Of a DNA stretch of 64,000 nt, positions 4,677 through 58,695 are shown one piece after another. The notes under the pieces were generated by a model that saw nothing but the letters and a program-made list of their open reading frames with translations, was not told the DNA's origin and ran no database searches. The translations under genes were made by a program, and so were the position numbers. The number at the start of each line of letters is the position of its first letter. Position 1 is the stretch's first letter. This DNA is from Escherichia phage vB_EcoM_JS09: the sequence record NC_024124.2. One strand, given 5' to 3'.

Positions 4677-5219
4677 ATGAGAAAAGCACTACTCGCTGGT
4701 CTATTTGCTCTTTCGTTATCAGCACATAGCTCCGAGCATACTTTTAGTAATGTCCAACTCGATAACTTGAATTATGCTTATCAGTTTGGGGAACAGTTTT
4801 CTAAGGACGGAAAATTTAAAACGCATGAAAATATGCATAAGAAAGGACTTGGATACATAATGGCCGCAATACTATGGCAGGAATCATCTGCTGGTATTAA
4901 TCTTAAAGATAAGAAAGGTCACCATGCGTATGGAATGTTCCAAAACTATCTACCAACAATGAGGGCAAGAATTAACCAGCTTGGTTATAATATGACTGAT
5001 GCCCAAATTAAGAAAATGCTATCTAAGCGGTCTAATTCAACCAGATGGGCTTATATCGAATTTTCTTATTGGTTAAATATACATAATGGGGATATAAGAA
5101 AAGCTATATCCTCATACAATGCGGGATGGAAGACAAGTGCTGGAAGTAAATATGCTTCTGAAGTCCTAGAAAAGGCTAATTACCTTAAATCAAATAAACT
5201 ACTGGAAATAAAAGAATGA
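4677..5219 (+). CDS. Secreted lytic-transglycosylase-like protein (SLT-type motifs)
   Basis: Signal peptide MRKALLAGLFALSLSAHS; motifs WQESSAG, GMFQ, SYNAGW resemble SLT domain. Confidence 0.55.
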   Translation: MRKALLAGLFALSLSAHSSEHTFSNVQLDNLNYAYQFGEQFSKDGKFKTHENMHKKGLGYIMAAILWQESSAGINLKDKKGHHAYGMFQNYLPTMRARINQLGYNMTDAQIKKMLSKRSNSTRWAYIEFSYWLNIHNGDIRKAISSYNAGWKTSAGSKYASEVLEKANYLKSNKLLEIKE

Positions 5220-5563
5220 CCAAAGTGTTGGCTTTAATAGTTGGCTTGGTTTCATTTAACGCTCTTGCTAATACTACATATACTGATGTAACGGAGTATA
5301 CAAACAGAACGGCGTCTGATTATTGTGGTAAAAGTCAAGAGTGTAAAGTAGATTTTTCACAAAAATTGTTATATGCGTATAAAGACGGAGAAAAAGATGG
5401 GGCGTCTAGTAGGTTCAAGGCGTCTACCTTAATTAAAAGATACTATAAAAAATGGCAAATATTAGAATGCTCGGTGGCGGAACCTAAAGATAAGGCAGCA
5501 TGCAATTCTATGGTGGACCGTCTAGTTGACTCTTATAATAGAGGACTTGCAGCAAGTGATTAA
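5216..5563 (+). CDS. Secreted/periplasmic hypothetical protein
   Basis: N-terminal signal-like MTKVLALIVGLVSFNALA; ATGA overlap with upstream gene. Confidence 0.45.
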   Translation: MTKVLALIVGLVSFNALANTTYTDVTEYTNRTASDYCGKSQECKVDFSQKLLYAYKDGEKDGASSRFKASTLIKRYYKKWQILECSVAEPKDKAACNSMVDRLVDSYNRGLAASD

Positions 5564-6023
5564 AAACTATATCAAGGGCGATATTGTCGCCCTGTTTTCT
5601 AAAGGTAATAATATTGCTCATGGGTGTAATTGTTTTCATACAATGGGCGCCGGTGTAGCAGGCCAATTAGCAAAGGCTTATCCAAAAATTTTAGAAGCCG
5701 ATAAACTTCAAACCGAATTCGGAGACAAGTCTAAACTCGGGACTTATTCGGTTTATGAAAAATATTTTAAGACCCATAAAGCTTATTGCTTTAATCTTTA
5801 TACGCAGTTTGAGCCGGGACCTAATTTTGAGTACTATGCTTTAATGAATTGTATAATAGAATTAAATGAATTCGGAAAGAATAAGATAACAAAGCCTGTA
5901 ATTTATATGCCAAGAATTGGTGCAGGTATCGGTGGCGGAAACTGGGATGTCATCGAAGAGATTTTAGACACATATTCCACTAAACTAGAAATTGTGATTG
6001 TTGATTGGGAACCATTATTATGA
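5556..6023 (+). CDS. Macrodomain protein (TARG1/DarG-like ADP-ribose hydrolase fold); start uncertain
   Basis: HGCNCFHTMGAGVAGQL and MPRIGAGIGGGNWDVI resemble TARG1-type macrodomain motifs; ORF opens at TTG 5526, GTG 5556 chosen after SD gagga. Confidence 0.55.
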   Translation: MIKNYIKGDIVALFSKGNNIAHGCNCFHTMGAGVAGQLAKAYPKILEADKLQTEFGDKSKLGTYSVYEKYFKTHKAYCFNLYTQFEPGPNFEYYALMNCIIELNEFGKNKITKPVIYMPRIGAGIGGGNWDVIEEILDTYSTKLEIVIVDWEPLL

Positions 6024-9879: not shown

Positions 9880-10865
9880 TGAAAACGATTGTTAAGGCTT
9901 ACTTTGGTAGCCACCTTTATGGAACGTCTACTCCTGAATCTGACGTCGATTTTAAAGAAATTTATGTCCCTCATGCTCGTGATATCTTGACCGGTAACGT
10001 TAAAGAACATATGAGCAAGAACACGAATAACACATCTTCTAAGAACACAAAAGACGACGTGGACCATGAGTTGTATAGTCTCAAATATTTCTTTAAACTA
10101 GCTGCGGATGGTGAAACCGTCGCATTAGACATGCTTCACACTCCACAAAGTCTAGTAGTTAAATCTGATTTGCCTGATGTATGGAAGTATATTCAAGATA
10201 ACAGGTCTCGTTTCTATACCACTAACATGAAATCTTATTTAGGGTATGTCCGTAAGCAAGCTTCCAAATACGGTGTCAAGGGTTCTCGACTGGCTGTTCT
10301 TCGACAAGCCCTTAAACGTTCTAATGAATGGGGACAATACTTTGATAATGGTGCAGTAATTCGTTTATCACATATGAAGAATGTTCTGCCTGTAGGTGAA
10401 TTTGCTTCGTGGGTTGAAACCGAAAACGAGAAAACAGGTAAGCAAACATTCTATAATCTGTTAGACCGTAAATTCCAAGATACGTTAACCAATAAAGAGT
10501 TCAATGCCATCCTGGTTAAACTGGAAGAGAACTATGGTGAACGTGCTCGTAAGGCAGAAGCTAACGAAGGTATTGACTGGAAAGCATTGAGTCATGCATG
10601 CCGTGGTGGACTTCAATTATTGGAAATTTACAAAACCGGTGACTTGGTTTACCCACTTCAGGATGCTCCATTTATTCTCGATGTTAAGCTTGGTAAACAT
10701 ACGTTTAAAACTGTACAAGAATTCCTGGAAGACATTGTTGACCAGGTAGAACAAGCATCAGAACAAGCCGCTAAGAACGGTATGCAACAAAAAGTAGATA
10801 TGAGTTTCTGGGATGATTTCCTTGAGCAAGTCTATCTCGAAAATCATAATTCTTACTATAAATAA
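9876..10865 (+). CDS. Pol-beta-superfamily nucleotidyltransferase-like protein
   Basis: N-terminal GSHLYGTSTPESDVDF resembles GS...[DE]x[DE] NTase motif; ATGATGA coupling. Confidence 0.45.
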   Translation: MMKTIVKAYFGSHLYGTSTPESDVDFKEIYVPHARDILTGNVKEHMSKNTNNTSSKNTKDDVDHELYSLKYFFKLAADGETVALDMLHTPQSLVVKSDLPDVWKYIQDNRSRFYTTNMKSYLGYVRKQASKYGVKGSRLAVLRQALKRSNEWGQYFDNGAVIRLSHMKNVLPVGEFASWVETENEKTGKQTFYNLLDRKFQDTLTNKEFNAILVKLEENYGERARKAEANEGIDWKALSHACRGGLQLLEIYKTGDLVYPLQDAPFILDVKLGKHTFKTVQEFLEDIVDQVEQASEQAAKNGMQQKVDMSFWDDFLEQVYLENHNSYYK

Positions 10866-12747: not shown

Positions 12748-13275
12748 ATGAACGCTAAAGATATTTTCAACCTGGTAAATTATAACGACGGTAAATTTAA
12801 ATCTGAAGCACAAAGCAAGTTCTTTAATGACGTTGCTTATGGTAACGAGATTACCGTAGACGGAGGTCAGATTTTCAAATCTCGCTGGAATTGGATTGCT
12901 ATCATCGATTCAGTTGGAATTGTGGAAGTCTACAAAAACACTAACAAAAAACGTACATTATTCTGGTCTCGTGAAACTAACGAGCAGTACAAAAAGGATA
13001 AAGCATCTCGTTTATCCAAAGTAACCCAGGAAGATATCGAGTTTATCAAGAAAGATATCGAGATGTACGAAAATTTAATCGCTGAAGACCAGGCAGTACT
13101 CGATAAGTTTGATGAAATTAAAGCTTCTCGTGAAATCCCTGACTTCATGAAAGAAACAGTAAACGAACGATACGCTCTCACTTCAGAACGTATTGCAAAC
13201 TATACAAAACAGAAAGCAGAACGTATTAGTACTCTTCGGAAATTTGAAGAACGTTTAAAGACGGTTCACGCATAA
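12748..13275 (+). CDS. Hypothetical protein
   Basis: SD ggagg; promoter cassette upstream. Confidence 0.5.
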   Translation: MNAKDIFNLVNYNDGKFKSEAQSKFFNDVAYGNEITVDGGQIFKSRWNWIAIIDSVGIVEVYKNTNKKRTLFWSRETNEQYKKDKASRLSKVTQEDIEFIKKDIEMYENLIAEDQAVLDKFDEIKASREIPDFMKETVNERYALTSERIANYTKQKAERISTLRKFEERLKTVHA

Positions 13276-13277
13276 AC

Positions 13278-13302
13278 GCTTTACCCAAGGACGGGTTATA
13301 AT
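13278..13302 (+). promoter_or_regulatory. Promoter cassette (GCTTTAC ... TATAAT)
   Basis: GCTTTACCCAAGGACGGGTTATAAT, related to the CCAAGGATGG family. Confidence 0.4.
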
Positions 13303-13337
13303 GGTTTTGAGTTCCAATTCAATCTGAGGAAATAGTT

Positions 13338-14333
13338 ATGAGCATTACATCTGATGCGGTAAAACATGAAATTAACGGTTTATGTGCTTCACAGATTAAA
13401 GTGTGGTTTAAAGACCATAATGATCGCAGAGCACTTAATTATGAGCAAATTGCTATCCAAGTTCATCAATTATTGACTAGTAAATTTGATTTTCATATGC
13501 CGTCTGAAATCTATACTAATCTACCGCGAGCGCTTATTAAAGCGTGTAAAGGTTACGGAAAATCAATGGCCGATGGAATCTTCAGCGCGCTGAATAAACT
13601 TAACGTTCTGTCGATGATTAACTCTAATAACATCCTGCGTAATCTAGGACGTACTGATTTGTTCGGTCGTGAACAGTGTAAAATGCCTTTGAAATGGATT
13701 GTTGCTCATCTTAACGAGAACCAAACACGTTTTATGGCCGTATCAGCACGCTTACAAATGGGCCTAGATCGTCAGATGAACTTTAAAACTCATCCACGTT
13801 ATTCAGGTTCAACAGACTTTTATAAATGTGAGCTTCAAAAGGTTGCAGGTAAAACTGTCTTAGTAGTTCGTGTAACGTTTGAAGGACGACGTCAAGGATA
13901 TTTTGACCTAATCGGCTCTGGTCTTAAACATTGTGGATTTATTGACGAAGTTGTTATAAAGCGAGACGGCATTGGATATCGTATTGGATATGTTTGTACT
14001 CTTAAAGAAGAGATTTCAGGTCCAGCACCAGGACTAAAAGACGTTAGATATAAAGACGAGCTCGTTGAAGAAATAAAAGAAGTTGAATATGATATCAACC
14101 AAGAAGATGCTCTTAAAGACCTTATTGATGAACTAAACCAAGACGTTATTCCGGTTCAAAAATTTGAATCAAAACATGCTGAGCAAATCAAATACTTTGA
14201 AGCTTTGATTAACGAACTTAATGTAACTATTCAACAGACTGATGATGAAATCTCACGATTAGCAGGCTTAAACGGTAAAAATAAAACAGAACGAGCTAAT
14301 CTTATTCAAGTAGTAAAACTTCTTAAGGAATGA
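13338..14333 (+). CDS. Hypothetical protein with C-terminal coiled-coil
   Basis: 331 aa; SD gagga; cassette GCTTTAC..TATAAT upstream. Confidence 0.5.
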   Translation: MSITSDAVKHEINGLCASQIKVWFKDHNDRRALNYEQIAIQVHQLLTSKFDFHMPSEIYTNLPRALIKACKGYGKSMADGIFSALNKLNVLSMINSNNILRNLGRTDLFGREQCKMPLKWIVAHLNENQTRFMAVSARLQMGLDRQMNFKTHPRYSGSTDFYKCELQKVAGKTVLVVRVTFEGRRQGYFDLIGSGLKHCGFIDEVVIKRDGIGYRIGYVCTLKEEISGPAPGLKDVRYKDELVEEIKEVEYDINQEDALKDLIDELNQDVIPVQKFESKHAEQIKYFEALINELNVTIQQTDDEISRLAGLNGKNKTERANLIQVVKLLKE

Positions 14334-14362
14334 TGTACAACCAAGGATGGTTGGAGTATAAT
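14334..14362 (+). promoter_or_regulatory. Repeated promoter cassette, CCAAGGATGGTTGGAGTATAAT family
   Basis: TGTACAACCAAGGATGGTTGGAGTATAAT; near-identical copies at 15329, 57193, 57752. Confidence 0.55.
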
Positions 14363-14388
14363 AAATTTTTCAACATGAGGAATATAAA

Positions 14389-15324
14389 ATGGCTTCTATT
14401 ACACGTAGAGAACTTATCAAAGAATTTACCTCGAACGCATATACCCCAGGTCCTAATCCTATCCGTATGCCTGTAAAGACTCCTGAAGAGATTGAGGAAA
14501 TCTGTTCATATTATGGGATTACTTCTCGTAAGTTTACTCAATTTGAATGCGTTACTAACACACCCGTTAAAGAGTTCATTAAAAATGGTGAGTTCAGCCG
14601 TTTATTAGCCAAACAGAAACTTCGTAATTTTTGTATTGGCGGTGAAGGACAATATTTCGCTAAGCAGTTCAGGAATAACCTTAACAATCTGATGGCCATT
14701 GCTTCTCGTATTCGTCCTCAAGCAATTAACATGAAACATTTGAAATATACTTACGATAAGTTAGAAATCATGGTTATCAGTGAGAACGAGTTCACTCTTA
14801 CGTATAAACCTAAGAATGATAACGTTGCTCGTGTATTCCACCAAGCGTTGGAAGTGTTAGGTGATAATATCCACCAGATTAAAGCAATTTATTCTCGTGA
14901 GCTTAATATTATCAACCCTATCAAGAATAAGGGCCATATCGCTATCCAGGCTCGTGTATCTATTGGTAAAAAGGTTCCTGCGCCATGGTGGCACAAAGAC
15001 TCTGAATACTATCAAAATCTTAAAAAGGAAAATGCCACGTTCGAAGCGTCAATTACTACAACCCCAATTGGCAATGCTGAAGTTCAAGGTGCATATTTTA
15101 CTGCTCCATCTATATACACTTCACCGTCGACTAAACTGGAAATCTCTAACGGTCTTCTTCCTGCCGAAGATTACCATTACAATCAAATCAAGGCCACTAT
15201 GGACAAACTGTCTGTTGAACTTGACAAAGCACAAGCTAAGCTTCGTGATGCTCAAAGTGTTGTAACGAATCTCCAGTTGCAGTATTCTAAACTTTTTAAC
15301 GCAATGAATGCATTAAAATCATAA
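14389..15324 (+). CDS. Hypothetical protein with C-terminal coiled-coil
   Basis: 311 aa; preceded by CCAAGGATGGTTGGAGTATAAT cassette. Confidence 0.5.
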   Translation: MASITRRELIKEFTSNAYTPGPNPIRMPVKTPEEIEEICSYYGITSRKFTQFECVTNTPVKEFIKNGEFSRLLAKQKLRNFCIGGEGQYFAKQFRNNLNNLMAIASRIRPQAINMKHLKYTYDKLEIMVISENEFTLTYKPKNDNVARVFHQALEVLGDNIHQIKAIYSRELNIINPIKNKGHIAIQARVSIGKKVPAPWWHKDSEYYQNLKKENATFEASITTTPIGNAEVQGAYFTAPSIYTSPSTKLEISNGLLPAEDYHYNQIKATMDKLSVELDKAQAKLRDAQSVVTNLQLQYSKLFNAMNALKS

Positions 15325-15328
15325 AATA

Positions 15329-15358
15329 GTTTACAACCAAGGATGGTTGGAGTATAAT
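15329..15358 (+). promoter_or_regulatory. Repeated promoter cassette, CCAAGGATGGTTGGAGTATAAT family
   Basis: GTTTACAACCAAGGATGGTTGGAGTATAAT. Confidence 0.55.
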
Positions 15359-15386
15359 GAATCTATCTTAACGAGAGGAAAATATT

Positions 15387-16337
15387 ATGACACGTTCACA
15401 TTACATTGATTATTTTGCAGGTCTTATCGCTAACGTTCATGCTCAGCGCGCTACTGGTGCACTAGGATTTGATGTTCCACACCGAGATGTAGTAAGTGGT
15501 ATTCTTCGAGATTTTGGCACATACACAGGTCAAGAAAATCATATCTGTAAAGATACTCAGAATGCGTATTCTCATTCATTAGGGACACTGCTTCATTGGT
15601 TCAAACGTTCTCGTTTATTATCTTCTACTGTGGCTCGTGATAACATTAAAAACTTTATGAAGCCGAGCTTTATTAAATCTGTGACATCTAAAACTGATTT
15701 GGTTGAATTTACTATTATTAACGATGTTAAAAAGACTCATTTGGCTGATTGGTTATCTACCATTCCTGAAACTAAATTTGCTGATAAATTTGCTTGTGAA
15801 TTCAATAACCAAGTGAATATGCTTTTTAAACATTCACGTAAATTATTCACAGGCGGTGATGGTCGTACAAATAAAGTTCATGTTAAAGATTGGGTTACTG
15901 CAGTATTCAAACCAACTGGTAATGGTAACGCATCATTGTCAATTGATATCCAGGTTCCTTATTACTACTCACGTAATCTCGGTACCATGAAAGCCGAAGA
16001 AATTAATAAGCGCAACAAAACCGTTCGTTCGCTGTCTTATAAACTTCGTATGATGTTACAGACTATGGATGTTGTTGAAATGTTCAGCGAAACTGAAGAT
16101 AATGGTTCAATGTTATTCAGTTCTCGTATTCAAATTAAGCTGAAGAACCCTAATACGTATAAACCTAAGCCTATTAAAGAGCCTAAAGCAGAAAAAGTTG
16201 ATAACTTAAGAGAAGAACGCGAATATCTCAAATCTCGTCTGAAAGAAGTCGAAGCCCAGATTGCAGAACAAACTAAATCGTTAAAAGCTCTGAATGCGAA
16301 AGCGGATGGCTTACGAAATGCCATTGAGGTGTTATAA
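15387..16337 (+). CDS. Hypothetical protein with C-terminal coiled-coil
   Basis: 316 aa; preceded by GTTTAC..CCAAGGATGGTTGGAGTATAAT cassette. Confidence 0.5.
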   Translation: MTRSHYIDYFAGLIANVHAQRATGALGFDVPHRDVVSGILRDFGTYTGQENHICKDTQNAYSHSLGTLLHWFKRSRLLSSTVARDNIKNFMKPSFIKSVTSKTDLVEFTIINDVKKTHLADWLSTIPETKFADKFACEFNNQVNMLFKHSRKLFTGGDGRTNKVHVKDWVTAVFKPTGNGNASLSIDIQVPYYYSRNLGTMKAEEINKRNKTVRSLSYKLRMMLQTMDVVEMFSETEDNGSMLFSSRIQIKLKNPNTYKPKPIKEPKAEKVDNLREEREYLKSRLKEVEAQIAEQTKSLKALNAKADGLRNAIEVL

Positions 16338-16642
16338 TGAAACTACGTCTTTTAGAGGATATTGATATGAGCACTAATCATGGCTTGGTTAAGTTTATTG
16401 ACGATAGTTCAAAGATTGAATTTGTTCAGCGAGATAAAATCCACGGTGAAGAAGAGTTCGTTCCTCCGGCATGGAACGAAATAATGAAAATGGTTGAACG
16501 ACGTGAAAATGCTGCCAAATCGGCAGCAAAACATCCATGTCCGGAATGTGGAACTATCCAAGTCCAACTGGTTAACTGGACCACTGATAACTTGAAATTG
16601 AAATGCCGTAAATGCTTCCACAAATTTGAGAGAACATTATAA
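16337..16642 (+). CDS. Zinc-ribbon small protein
   Basis: CPECG...CRKC pairs; TAATG coupling. Confidence 0.5.
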   Translation: MKLRLLEDIDMSTNHGLVKFIDDSSKIEFVQRDKIHGEEEFVPPAWNEIMKMVERRENAAKSAAKHPCPECGTIQVQLVNWTTDNLKLKCRKCFHKFERTL

Positions 16643-17055
16643 TGAGATATAGCCTTCGTTGTTTTATCGCAGCTTTAGTTTTTGCTATTATTCCATTCAT
16701 TTGGAACAGCCAGAATACTTACATGGAAACTAAAGTAATTCCTGTGGAGGTAGTGGAATTAATCTCAGGCCAATCTACAGGAAAATATTCTAAATTAGAA
16801 TTTATTGCAGTCTATAAAGATGAGCAAGGACGAGTTTTTGACAGGCGTGTATCGCCATCGTTTTATACGCTTCTGAATAAAGGTGATACGATAGCTATAG
16901 AAATTCGTGAGATGGATATCAAACAAACTACTAAAGATAACTTGATTTGGTTCTTTGGTACAGTGTTGTTGGTTTCTATCTGTATCACAGGTTTTATTAC
17001 ATGTATTGTATTTGGCATTGCATATTTAATCGATGAAAGGAAAAATAATGTTTAA
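16642..17055 (+). CDS. Membrane protein
   Basis: Hydrophobic N- and C-terminal helices; TAATG coupling. Confidence 0.5.
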   Translation: MRYSLRCFIAALVFAIIPFIWNSQNTYMETKVIPVEVVELISGQSTGKYSKLEFIAVYKDEQGRVFDRRVSPSFYTLLNKGDTIAIEIREMDIKQTTKDNLIWFFGTVLLVSICITGFITCIVFGIAYLIDERKNNV

Positions 17056-17311
17056 AGTGTACGGGTACGACTCTACTATTCATAAATGCATTTATTGCGA
17101 TAATGCGAAACGATTGCTGACTGTTAAGAAACAGCCATTCGAATTCATTAATGTTATGCCAGAAAAAGGTGTTTTTGATGATGAGAAAATTGCTGAGCTT
17201 CTGGTTAAGCTTGGACGTGAATCACAAGTCGGATTGACTATGCCTCAAGTGTTTGCTCCTGATGGAACTTCGATCGGTGGCTTTGACCAACTACGAGAAT
17301 ATTTTAAATGA
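17048..17311 (+). CDS. nrdC: Glutaredoxin/thioredoxin NrdC
   Basis: MFKVYGYDSTIHKCIYCDNAKRLL... matches recalled T4 NrdC; in-frame ATG 17048 of ORF 17033-17311. Confidence 0.85.
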   Translation: MFKVYGYDSTIHKCIYCDNAKRLLTVKKQPFEFINVMPEKGVFDDEKIAELLVKLGRESQVGLTMPQVFAPDGTSIGGFDQLREYFK

Positions 17312-18605: not shown

Positions 18606-19079
18606 ATGTTATTATCTGGCAAATTATACAAAGAAGAAAAACAAAAATTTTATGATGCACAGAATGGTAAGTGTCCTATTTGCCACCGTGAATTAGACCC
18701 TGATGTTCAAGGTAACCATCTTGACCACGACCATGAATTAAACGGGCCAAAAGCCGGTAGAGTTCGTGGATTACTCTGTAATCTGTGCAACGCAGCAGAA
18801 GGCCAAATGAAGCATAAGTTCAACCGTTCCGGTCTTAAAGGACGTGATGTCGACTACCTCGAATGGCTTGAAGCTCTTCTTGCTTATTTGAAACAAGATT
18901 ATTCTGATAATAATATCCATCCTAATTTTGTTCCAGACAAAACTAAAGAGTTCTCAAGACTAGGTAAAGAGGAAATGATGGCTGAGATGCTTCAAAGAGG
19001 ATTTGAATATAATGAATCTGATACCAAAACACAATTAATAGCTTCATTCAAAAAGCAGCTTAGAAAGAGTTTAAAATGA
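18606..19079 (+). CDS. 49: Endonuclease VII (Holliday-junction resolvase)
   Basis: MLLSGKLYKEEKQKFYDAQNGKCPICHREL...HLDHDHELNGPKAG matches recalled T4 gp49; TATAAATA upstream. Confidence 0.9.
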   Translation: MLLSGKLYKEEKQKFYDAQNGKCPICHRELDPDVQGNHLDHDHELNGPKAGRVRGLLCNLCNAAEGQMKHKFNRSGLKGRDVDYLEWLEALLAYLKQDYSDNNIHPNFVPDKTKEFSRLGKEEMMAEMLQRGFEYNESDTKTQLIASFKKQLRKSLK

Positions 19080-57192: not shown

Positions 57193-57222
57193 GTTTACAA
57201 CCAAAGATGGTTGGAGTATAAT
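57193..57222 (+). promoter_or_regulatory. Repeated promoter cassette, CCAAGGATGGTTGGAGTATAAT family
   Basis: GTTTACAACCAAAGATGGTTGGAGTATAAT. Confidence 0.55.
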
Positions 57223-57253: not shown

Positions 57254-57748
57254 ATGAATATCGATACTACGGCTACTTACATCCTGAAAGACGAAAAACA
57301 AATCAACTGGTACGGTGCTTCAGTGCGAGCTTATGAAAAGTTTTGTGAAATTTTAGGTGCCACTCAAGGTAATAGTTTCACTATTGTTAACTTCATCAAA
57401 CAAGCTGAAGGCCCTTGGTTATTCTTAGAAATTAAAAATTCATATGGTACAATTTCTACTACTGCCATCCCAAGCACCGACTTTGAACTGTTGATTGAAG
57501 AAGCACCTGTTAAAGATGGTCTCCACTTTGATATGGATATCGTTTGTATGTACGGTACTCTGATTAAGCCTATTGAGCCTACTGATTTATTGTGTAAATA
57601 TGTTTCAATTCGACGCCCATTCGATGGTCCAGTAAATGGATGGGTAACTGACCAGTGGATTGAAGATGGGGTTGAACTTCTGAACGTTGTTCATGCCGGT
57701 GATTTTAGTGTAGTTCCACGTAGTGCTGTGGTTAATATTCTAAATTAA
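57254..57748 (+). CDS. Hypothetical protein, member of tandem paralogue triad
   Basis: C-terminal VTDQWIEDGVELLNVVHAGDFSVVP shared with next two genes. Confidence 0.5.
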   Translation: MNIDTTATYILKDEKQINWYGASVRAYEKFCEILGATQGNSFTIVNFIKQAEGPWLFLEIKNSYGTISTTAIPSTDFELLIEEAPVKDGLHFDMDIVCMYGTLIKPIEPTDLLCKYVSIRRPFDGPVNGWVTDQWIEDGVELLNVVHAGDFSVVPRSAVVNILN

Positions 57749-57751
57749 TGT

Positions 57752-57780
57752 TGTACATCCAAGGATGGATGGAGTATAAT
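57752..57780 (+). promoter_or_regulatory. Repeated promoter cassette, CCAAGGATGGTTGGAGTATAAT family
   Basis: TGTACATCCAAGGATGGATGGAGTATAAT. Confidence 0.55.
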
Positions 57781-57810
57781 GAATTCAACTTAAACAAAGA
57801 GAGAAAAATT

Positions 57811-58266
57811 ATGATTACTATTGGTGAAATTAAGCGTGTATCAATTGCATCCCGGTCTAAAGCCGCAGGTCGTCTGGTTGAAGTTATCGGACTTCGCACA
57901 AATGGCATGGGACGTATTAAAGAAGTTAAAGTTCGAATCATTCCTAGTTTTGGACGTCAGGATACTCAGTACGCTTACGTAAGTCCTAAATTCCTGGAAA
58001 CTCGTGTGAGCGCTCCATCTGCTTCTACTGAACCTAATGTACAGTTCAAATGGGCCTTGTGTAAAGGTGTTGAATTCCAGACTGATAAAGAATTTGACTT
58101 CATCGATGAATACGGTTATCCAAGCAAAACTGATACCATGTGTGGCTTCATTAGTGACCAATGGGTCGAAGATGGTGAAAAGTTATACAATATCGTATTC
58201 TTAGGTGACTTCCGAGTTGTTAAAGAATCTGAAATCACTCGCTATGTGTCTCCTCGTAAAGCTTAA
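57811..58266 (+). CDS. Hypothetical protein, member of tandem paralogue triad
   Basis: ISDQWVEDGEKLYNIVFLGDFRVV; ATG 57811 inside ORF 57748-58266. Confidence 0.5.
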   Translation: MITIGEIKRVSIASRSKAAGRLVEVIGLRTNGMGRIKEVKVRIIPSFGRQDTQYAYVSPKFLETRVSAPSASTEPNVQFKWALCKGVEFQTDKEFDFIDEYGYPSKTDTMCGFISDQWVEDGEKLYNIVFLGDFRVVKESEITRYVSPRKA

Positions 58267-58275
58267 GGAATTATT

Positions 58276-58695
58276 ATGAATATTGTAAATCTCTCTACAG
58301 GTGATTACGTATATGTATCTGTTGCTTCTCGCTCTAAAGTTGCCGGGAAGTTGGTAGAAGTTCTTTCTGTGAGTGATCCGGTTTTTGGTCGTAACCAAGT
58401 TAAAGTTCGTGATGCTAATGGTAATATTGGCTACGTCTCAAGCCAGTTCATTGAGCCGGAAGAACGTGCGTTCAAATGGAAACTGTGCAGGTCTGTTTTA
58501 GTTGTAAAAGACCATGAATTTACTATTGCTGCTGCAACTGACGGGTCTCCATGGACAACGAATCAAGTTGCTGGTTTTATTTCGGACCAATGGGTTGAAG
58601 ATGGTGTTAAGCTTTATAACATCGTTTTCGCTGGACAGTTCATGGTAGTTCCTGAGTTCCAAATCAAAAAATATTGTCCAGCATCTTTTGCATAA
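58276..58695 (+). CDS. Hypothetical protein, member of tandem paralogue triad
   Basis: ISDQWVEDGVKLYNIVFAGQFMVV; N-terminal VSVASRSKVAGKLVEV shared with 57811 gene. Confidence 0.5.
   Translation: MNIVNLSTGDYVYVSVASRSKVAGKLVEVLSVSDPVFGRNQVKVRDANGNIGYVSSQFIEPEERAFKWKLCRSVLVVKDHEFTIAAATDGSPWTTNQVAGFISDQWVEDGVKLYNIVFAGQFMVVPEFQIKKYCPASFA

Follow-up and report, generated by a model that had tools for sequence, protein, structure and literature searches.

Divergent alleles of nrdC.6, nrdC.5 and nrdC.3 in the nrdC region of Escherichia phage vB_EcoM_JS09: a module-exchanged array with a plausible role in immune evasion

The T4-like coliphage vB_EcoM_JS09 (Tequatrovirus; record NC_024124.2) carries three adjacent open reading frames (ORFs) of about 320 codons, here called ORF1, ORF2 and ORF3, at positions 13278 to 16337 of the 64,000-nucleotide (nt) stretch analysed, hereafter the window. 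Sequence comparison identifies this 3,060-nt interval as the nrdC.8-to-nrdC.2 segment of a T-even phage and the three ORFs as divergent alleles of nrdC.6, nrdC.5 and nrdC.3. The reading we favour, with moderate confidence, is that these alleles are exchanged as modules and that their products act as dispensable immune-evasion factors. An anti-defence role is plausible for ORF2, and we infer the same for ORF1 and ORF3. A sequence-only reading of the interval had proposed three unrelated, independently acquired accessory genes under identical early control; the genes are there as it described them, while their supposed independence and common control are not borne out.

The gene map was drawn by BLASTP of the ORFs of the window against the annotated T4 nrdC interval, and the result is collinear (Table 1). 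The ORFs could have been neither syntenic with nor similar to T4 nrdC genes, and both synteny and similarity were found. A gene for thioredoxin NrdC (17033-17311) and one for endonuclease VII (18606-19079) lie downstream of the array, which places the interval in the nrdC region. This region is among those that are hyperplastic in T-even genomes, and the + strand here corresponds to the direction of T4 early transcription. As in T4, the nrdC.6-type and nrdC.3-type genes stand in that order after nrdC.8 and before nrdC.2, but nrdC.4 is absent and an nrdC.7-like gene lies at 16642. That gene (16642-17055, between nrdC.2 and nrdC) encodes a membrane protein 41-44% identical to T4 NrdC.7 and occupies the slot that in T4 belongs to nrdC.1, reported to inhibit Septu; no homolog of nrdC.1 or nrdC.4 was found anywhere in the window. 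Many Tequatrovirus genomes, for instance vB_EcoM_TU01 and Shigella phage phi25-307, match the 3,060-nt interval at 96-98% identity, and 130 of the 513 matching phage records hold the whole block. Against relatives a few percent diverged, all three ORFs are under purifying selection, with ratios of nonsynonymous to synonymous substitution (dN/dS) of 0.04-0.05 for ORF1, 0.18-0.30 for ORF2 and 0.09-0.11 for ORF3. These low values mark them as real coding genes, of 331, 311 and 316 amino acids (aa).

Each ORF can be assigned to a family by both similarity and position. ORF1 belongs to PHROG 2257 (E = 8.5e-127; precomputed Pfam label PF26899), resembles full-length NrdC.6 relatives over its whole length (blastp E ~1e-32) and lies directly after nrdC.8 and the counterpart of the T4 promoter PnrdC.7. 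ORF2 belongs to PHROG 2351 and matches the Pfam family DUF7235/PF23882 along its full length (E = 2.3e-114; score 382.4 bits, cutoff 30; residues 15-310 aligned to profile positions 1-307), a model that is also matched by T4 NrdC.5 (3.7e-125) and by the homolog in phage JS10. Its slot is that of T4 nrdC.5, after an nrdC.6-type gene and before nrdC.4 or nrdC.3. ORF2 is thus like T4 NrdC.5 in family match, genomic slot, length and a C-terminal coiled coil, but represents a separate allele type with an identity of only 24%. ORF3 belongs to PHROG 1435 (E = 3.3e-104; precomputed Pfam label PF26897), is similar to NrdC.3 over its full length and stands directly before nrdC.2, which places it in the NrdC.3/NrdC.4 group. 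Residues 50-66 of ORF3 (15534-15584) form a patch, ENHICKDTQNAYSHSLG, that changes little or not at all within the whole NrdC.3 family, even among members with an overall identity as low as 55%. NrdC.4 lacks this patch, which could serve as a functional surface or site.

Comparison with the nrdC interval of related phages, a check that the sequence-only reading had itself suggested, bears directly on how the genes were acquired. In phages PST, JS10, CLB_P2 and VR20, too, nrdC.8 is followed by an array of three or four genes, each about 300 codons long, and the array is conserved in Tequatrovirus, Dhakavirus and Gaprivervirus. Because the same array is found in T4 and in these four phages, the genes were not acquired independently. 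The explanation that three unrelated ORFans were captured one by one behind copies of a single mobile early-promoter cassette is therefore improbable and largely refuted. It draws on the absence of pairwise BLAST similarity, on the three separate families kept by PHROGs and Pfam, and on the proposal that cassettes of this kind are vehicles for moving ORFans. It is contradicted by the positional homologs of all three genes in T4, PST, JS10 and VR20, by profiles that support common ancestry of ORF2 and ORF3 and suggest it for ORF1, by a length, conservation profile and C-terminal helix common to the three, and by the cassette of ORF1, which falls in a different promoter class.

The relationship among the families only becomes visible with profiles. 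Pairwise BLASTP among the three proteins finds no similarity (best E = 0.21, 2.6 and 0.35), so that the claim of no mutual similarity stands at this level, and hhalign with shallow family profiles was not significant either. Significance was reached only with deeper profiles, to which T4-, Dhakavirus- and Gaprivervirus-type alleles from fetched loci had been added. With these, NrdC.3 aligns to NrdC.4 over the full length (E = 5e-13, probability 98%), and NrdC.5, including ORF2, aligns to NrdC.4 (E = 2.5e-6, probability 89%) and to NrdC.3 and NrdC.4 combined (E = 1.2e-5, or 1.3e-4 after removal of the C-terminal coil); reversed-profile controls for NrdC.5 against NrdC.3/.4 gave E = 0.16-0.67. 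For NrdC.6, including ORF1, the alignment to NrdC.3/.4/.5 combined reached E = 0.008 to 4e-4, with controls at 0.17-0.47. In a search of 409 local ORFs with a hidden Markov model (HMM), the top 7 non-self matches were all NrdC.6 members. When coil-trimmed NrdC.6 sequences of five subtypes were each compared with 400 shuffles, those of four subtypes scored above 394-400 of them and those of the remaining subtype above 378 (shuffle p ~0.003-0.05). A profile search of 1.84 billion proteins with the NrdC.3 family found only 5, an NrdC.4-type protein among them (E = 5e-6), and no distant relatives with which the profiles could be deepened.

The profile alignments are collinear and share recognizable landmarks. 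An N-terminal 'TRxxYI' motif is in register, followed by a first helix with 'F/L-K-x-S/G-x-L-S...L-x-N-F', a second with 'F-x-x-N...A/S-S/A-R-L', a Pro-x-Glu-x-x-His/Tyr junction and a terminal helix that ends in 'L-L/I-K'. Conservation within each family peaks at the same three places, the two helices and the C-terminal helix, and is low in the N-terminus and the middle. From this evidence, ORF2 and ORF3 are, in our judgement, almost certainly paralogs, and ORF1 probably belongs to the same family, although the profile link of NrdC.6 to the others is suggestive only. NrdC.3, NrdC.4 and NrdC.5 would then form one T-even-restricted paralog family, which the profiles partly show, and NrdC.6 would probably be part of it too. 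The predicted common build is a protein of about 300 aa with two conserved helices near residues 60-150, the Pro-x-Glu-x-x-His/Tyr junction and a C-terminal helix or coiled coil of about 45 residues, in which the N-terminus and a strand-rich middle would vary strongly. An exact 16-nt repeat, TACGTATAAACCTAAG, also occurs in ORF2 (14799-14814) and in ORF3 (16154-16169), with TYKPK encoded in both; by chance, an estimated ~0.002 such matches would be expected over 4.1 kb. The profile alignment does not bring the two copies into register, which may reflect micro-conversion.

Several further observations concern the NrdC.6 family and its neighbour. The T4 reference NrdC.6 (275 aa; NC_000866 locus 10020-10140) appears to be frameshift-truncated: relatives encode 295 aa ending in ...DDEIFRLSGLSSKAKSEREKLIKIVDLLKS, and the T4 reference shows this conserved tail in another frame just past the annotated stop. 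In Escherichia phage Pinarejo (fetched locus 4935-5150), nrdC.6 is naturally deleted down to its last ~45 codons, which remain unannotated between nrdC.7 and nrdC.5. NrdC.8 (175 aa; window 12748-13275, JS10 locus 5236-5760) has a C-terminal half that is likewise helical and heptad-like, and among matches of the NrdC.6 HMM outside the family the JS10 protein ranks first (E = 0.12), perhaps by chance or perhaps as a truncated relative.

A C-terminal coiled coil had been proposed for all three proteins. An earlier heptad scan could not discriminate, as 40-50% of shuffles passed, and the test used instead compares the run length of hydrophobic positions spaced 3-4 residues apart with 300 composition-matched shuffles. 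By this measure the proposal holds for ORF2, whose 14 consecutive a/d positions were reached by 0 of 300 shuffles, and for ORF3, whose 10 a/d positions (residues 281-316) were reached by 10 of 300. It fails for ORF1, where most shuffles did as well; its C-terminal segment is conserved, yet broken by GLNGKNK. Structure prediction and Foldseek, also put forward by the sequence-only reading, were carried out and gave poor models and no usable matches. The AlphaFold2 model of ORF3 (25-sequence alignment) has a mean predicted local distance difference test score (pLDDT) of 52, with mostly confident helices in residues 1-84 (block means 65-91), a helix at 275-315 (pLDDT ~74-85) and a poor middle; that of ORF2 (19 sequences) has a mean of 40 and a terminal helix at 259-310 of low confidence. 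The order of elements is the same in both models (N-terminal helices, two long helices, strands, a helix, strands and a long terminal helix), which is weak evidence of likeness. Foldseek of the ORF3 model against BFVD returned its own family and weak matches in other T4-like phages; among these, a match in Serratia phage PS2 (E = 1.5e-4, TM 0.16) was distrusted as weak. Against the PDB, nothing fell below E = 0.68.

The promoters of the three genes depart in part from the description of near-identical cassettes and identical early control. The cassettes of ORF2 and ORF3 are indeed two copies of a 43-nt direct repeat that stand 996 nt apart and flank ORF2; they are identical at 86% of positions, and without a mismatch over a core of about 27 nt. 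A core 25-mer has 4 copies in the window against 0.00 expected by chance. Their TGTACA-17 nt-TATAAT and TTTACA-17 nt-TATAAT sites score 10 and 11 of 12 in a sigma-70 scan. Both agree with the promoter consensus TTTACW-N17-TAYWAT published for the promoter-early stem-loops (PeSLs) of PST and T4 (PMC4122927) and are followed by a Shine-Dalgarno sequence and ATG. PeSLs have been proposed to serve modular shuffling and mini-circle formation (Arbiol 2010, PMC2839356; Comeau 2014, PMC4122927), and promoter/terminator activity and mini-circles have been shown experimentally for RB49 and phi1 only (PMC2839356, PMC4122927). The stems vary in a compensatory manner, with CAACCA/TGGTTG, CATCCA/TGGATG and CTTCCA/TGGAGG across the copies in the window, JS10 and VR20, and the case for a stem rests on these variants because its free energy is no better than that of shuffles. 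The two cassettes thus resemble PeSLs in promoter consensus, in their hyperplastic setting, in lying at the edges of a replaced block and in forming repeats that flank ORF2; they differ from them in a stem of only 6 bp of unexceptional stability, and are known here from sequence. ORF2 and ORF3 would each have their own strong early promoter inside a PeSL cassette.

The cassette sequence also turns up in other contexts. Directly after the stem (14353-14366 and 15349-15362) stands GGAGUAUAAUAAA or GGAGUAUAAUGAA, and 9 of 11 positions of the ORF2 copy agree with GGAGRAYARAA, the target consensus of RegB/S1; this copy would be present in read-through transcripts only. The Shine-Dalgarno sequences of all three ORFs are of the GGAA type, which has been reported to be poorly cut (PMC1702504, also the source of the consensus). 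Downstream of dexA lie three small paralogous ORFs (57254-57748, ~57808-58266 and 58276-58695), two of which are preceded by the same early-promoter/stem-loop cassette, at 57198-57222 and 57756-57780. The three ORFs share the motif FISDQWVEDG..LYNIVF.G.F.VV and form a second paralog array. Two mechanically called ORFs, starting MMYNQGWLEYNKF... (14330-14476) and MLYIQGWMEYNEF... (57748-57810), were rejected as genes, being translations of the promoter cassette.

The cassette of ORF1 shares only the CCAAGGAYGG...TATAAT core with the other two and is ~6 nt shorter in the alignment. The sigma-70 scan finds no site in it, as TTTACC lies only 11 nt from TATAAT and 16-18 nt are needed. It does have the arrangement of a middle promoter: the MotA box, (a/t)(a/t)(a/t)TGCTTtA at 12+/-1 bp from the -10 element, directs transcription through MotA/AsiA sigma appropriation (Hinton 2010, PMC2988021), and here aaaCGCTTTA, 13 bp and TATAAT follow one another, with a single mismatch in the box (first base C, not T). 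In T4 the orthologous sequence CCGCTTTA-N12-TATAAT upstream of nrdC.7 puts +1 at T4 53325, the listed PnrdC.7 start, with TATAAT 7 nt before that mapped start. The ORF1 cassette is a nucleotide ortholog of PnrdC.7, with 81% identity through nrdC.8 up to 13306, but unlike PnrdC.7 it directly precedes an nrdC.6-type gene because nrdC.7 is not there. Given this geometry and the match to a mapped T4 promoter, ORF1 is most likely under middle-mode (MotA/AsiA) control together with read-through from upstream.

The position of these cassettes coincides with the limits of allele replacement. Nucleotide similarity to T4 stops at 13306, just after the -10 element of the ORF1 cassette, and resumes at 15330, the -35 element of the ORF3 cassette; between these points a 2.0-kb ORF1-ORF2 block stands in place of the 3.4-kb nrdC.7-.6-.5-.4 block of T4, and both breakpoints fall inside promoter cassettes. 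Homology breaks exactly where PeSL-mediated module exchange predicts, and the sequences indicate that alleles have been exchanged as modules via recombination within the cassettes. NrdC.8 and the ORF1 family are found in ~740 phage records (740 and 744), nearly all of them T-even phages of Escherichia, Shigella, Yersinia and Salmonella, and IMG/VR holds only 7 loci. ORF1-type alleles are bimodal: 150 records have at least 95% identity, 587 have ~32% (the T4 NrdC.6 type) and almost none lie between. ORF2-type proteins of at least 84% identity occur in 131 phage records, RB69 included. Of the 27 or 24 aa differences between ORF2 and two close relatives, 22-23 lie within residues 200-270, which form the linker ahead of the C-terminal helix. 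The array genes are dispensable in nature, since nrdC.6 has been lost in Pinarejo and the window lacks nrdC.4 and nrdC.1.

The main clue to function comes from T4. Its nrdC.5, an early gene that had been called uncharacterized, allows a T4 deletion mutant to infect Dsr1-carrying E. coli again; Dsr1 is a sirtuin defence of ECOR17, and T4 nrdC.5 neutralises it (Srikant et al. 2022, PMC9391042). In the same part of the genome, T4 nrdC.1 inhibits Septu (bioRxiv 10.1101/2025.11.20.689424) and T6 gp49.2 inhibits OLD (PMC13096335). As nrdC.5, nrdC.1 and gp49.2 counter Dsr1, Septu and OLD, an anti-defence island is taking shape in the nrdC-to-49 interval, and the suggestion of an anti-defence locus gains ground for the ORF2 family and from these nearby inhibitors. 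The view of the three as non-housekeeping accessory genes is upheld, as no confident match to a functional family was found in Pfam, NCBIfam, PADLOC or the PDB; sequence and profile searches of the PDB, and searches of NCBIfam and PADLOC, gave no informative match for the three ORFs. By its relation to T4 NrdC.5, ORF2 most likely neutralises a SIR2 NADase defence of the Dsr1 type, or else a variant of that defence. The proteins would bind their targets stoichiometrically as coiled-coil oligomers, with the variable regions setting target specificity, and ORF1 and ORF3 would act likewise on other host defence proteins. Stoichiometric immune inhibition is suggested by the narrow host clade, allele dimorphism, gene loss, the combination of variable regions with a conserved frame, and a terminal helix of the type used for oligomerisation.

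Several points weigh against this reading. ORF2 is too distant from the tested T4 NrdC.5 for the same target to be assumed, and the experimental datum is confined to T4 NrdC.5, with none for NrdC.6, NrdC.4 or NrdC.3. Direct binding and oligomerisation are things we infer and not results, and the AlphaFold2 models are too poor to support a common fold or a binding mode. The C-terminal heptads of ORF1 amount to a run of 7 a/d positions, reached by 210 of 300 shuffles, and the link of NrdC.6 to the other families is statistically insecure. On the side of the cassettes, the hairpin between the promoter boxes has little stability (-6.9 kcal/mol; z relative to shuffles, -0.5 to -0.8).

Two other roles for the proteins must be considered. 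Many T4 early genes of dispensable regions act on host physiology, MotB for example, and the three proteins could be host-takeover or other accessory factors outside immunity, aimed at host transcription, translation, the nucleoid or the envelope, with the anti-Dsr1 effect of NrdC.5 being indirect or allele-specific. No domain points to an immune target, and a single allele from one of four families has been tested, both of which speak for this explanation. We nevertheless consider it unlikely, because restriction of the array to T-even phages, strongly differing alleles, natural gene loss and the inhibitors of Dsr1, Septu and OLD close by would be expected of genes in an arms race more than of factors directed against conserved machinery of the host. 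T-even accessory regions also carry exclusion functions, and the proteins might act against competing phages or mobile elements, in superinfection exclusion or inter-phage competition, and not against host defences. The three ORFs have no membrane or nuclease features and what is known experimentally of the family's function is confined to counter-defence, which makes such a role very improbable.

Immune evasion by exchanged alleles, the reading we prefer, has an analogy in the T-even internal-protein (ip) locus, which encodes subtype-specific inhibitors of GmrSD variants (PMC12373910). As in the nrdC array, its genes are polymorphic and dispensable and lie in a hyperplastic region, and ip alleles are matched to variants of the host defence; the nrdC alleles might be matched in a similar way. 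The two loci differ in that they have no sequence relation, and that internal proteins are packaged and injected while the nrdC genes are expressed after infection. A reading of the N-termini (MTRxxYI, MKTR) as an internal-protein capsid-targeting sequence was dropped as too weak, and plasmid-expressed NrdC.5 works in the cell.

Table 1 Features of the nrdC.8-to-nrdC.2 interval and its surroundings in the window; identities are to T4 proteins by BLASTP, and the promoter assignments are predictions.
Feature	Position	Strand	Details
NrdC.10	ORF 11262		77% identity
NrdC.9	ORF 12402		34% identity
NrdC.8	ORF 12748		83% identity
ORF1 cassette	13277-13302	+	CGCTTTA 13277-13283; 13-nt spacer with CCAAGGACGG; -10 TATAAT 13297-13302
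ORF1 predicted transcription start	near 13309
ORF1 (NrdC.6)	13338-14333	+	331 aa; ATG start; GAGGA-type Shine-Dalgarno; 29% identity, E = 4e-19
ORF1 C-terminal helical segment	14151-14330	+	residues ~272-331; most conserved part of the NrdC.6 family
PeSL-type cassette before ORF2	14329-14371	+	-35 TGTACA 14334-14339; -10 TATAAT 14357-14362
ORF2 cassette stem-loop	14338-14353		CAACCA-AGGA-TGGTTG, then GGAG; predicted transcription start near 14369
ORF2 (NrdC.5)	14389-15324	+	311 aa; ATG start; GAGGA-type Shine-Dalgarno; 24% identity, E = 1e-9
ORF2 C-terminal coiled-coil segment	15166-15315	+	residues 260-309; 14 consecutive a/d positions
PeSL-type cassette before ORF3	15325-15367	+	-35 TTTACA 15330-15335; -10 TATAAT 15353-15358
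ORF3 cassette stem-loop	15334-15349		then GGAG; predicted transcription start near 15365
ORF3 (NrdC.3)	15387-16337	+	316 aa; ATG start; GAGGA-type Shine-Dalgarno; 57% identity, E = 2e-120; weak match to NrdC.4, E = 5e-5
ORF3 C-terminal coiled-coil helix	16209-16334	+	residues 275-316
NrdC.2	ORF 16337
NrdC	ORF 17033

The system is not of a new kind, as earlier work had already described its genes, its cassettes and the mechanism of shuffling. What is modestly new is the common ancestry of NrdC.3, NrdC.4 and NrdC.5, which is probable, and possibly of NrdC.6. A broader proposal, which we put forward tentatively and regard as rather doubtful, is that NrdC.3, NrdC.4, NrdC.5 and NrdC.6 make up one T-even-specific superfamily of coiled-coil-oligomerised immune antagonists with a constant helical frame and hypervariable specificity regions. 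Each paralog or allele would neutralise a different defence protein or Dsr1 variant, and the repertoire would be re-dealt via recombination in the PeSL and PnrdC.7 cassettes. T-even phages are workhorses of phage-defence research, and ~130-150 of the ~740 sequenced T-even genomes with the module carry allele types only 24-29% identical to those of T4. This raises the concrete question of whether alleles differ in the Dsr1 variants or other systems that they block, and whether the variable regions encode specificity. If the proposal is true, phages would possess in this superfamily their own counterpart of a polymorphic gene family for immune evasion.

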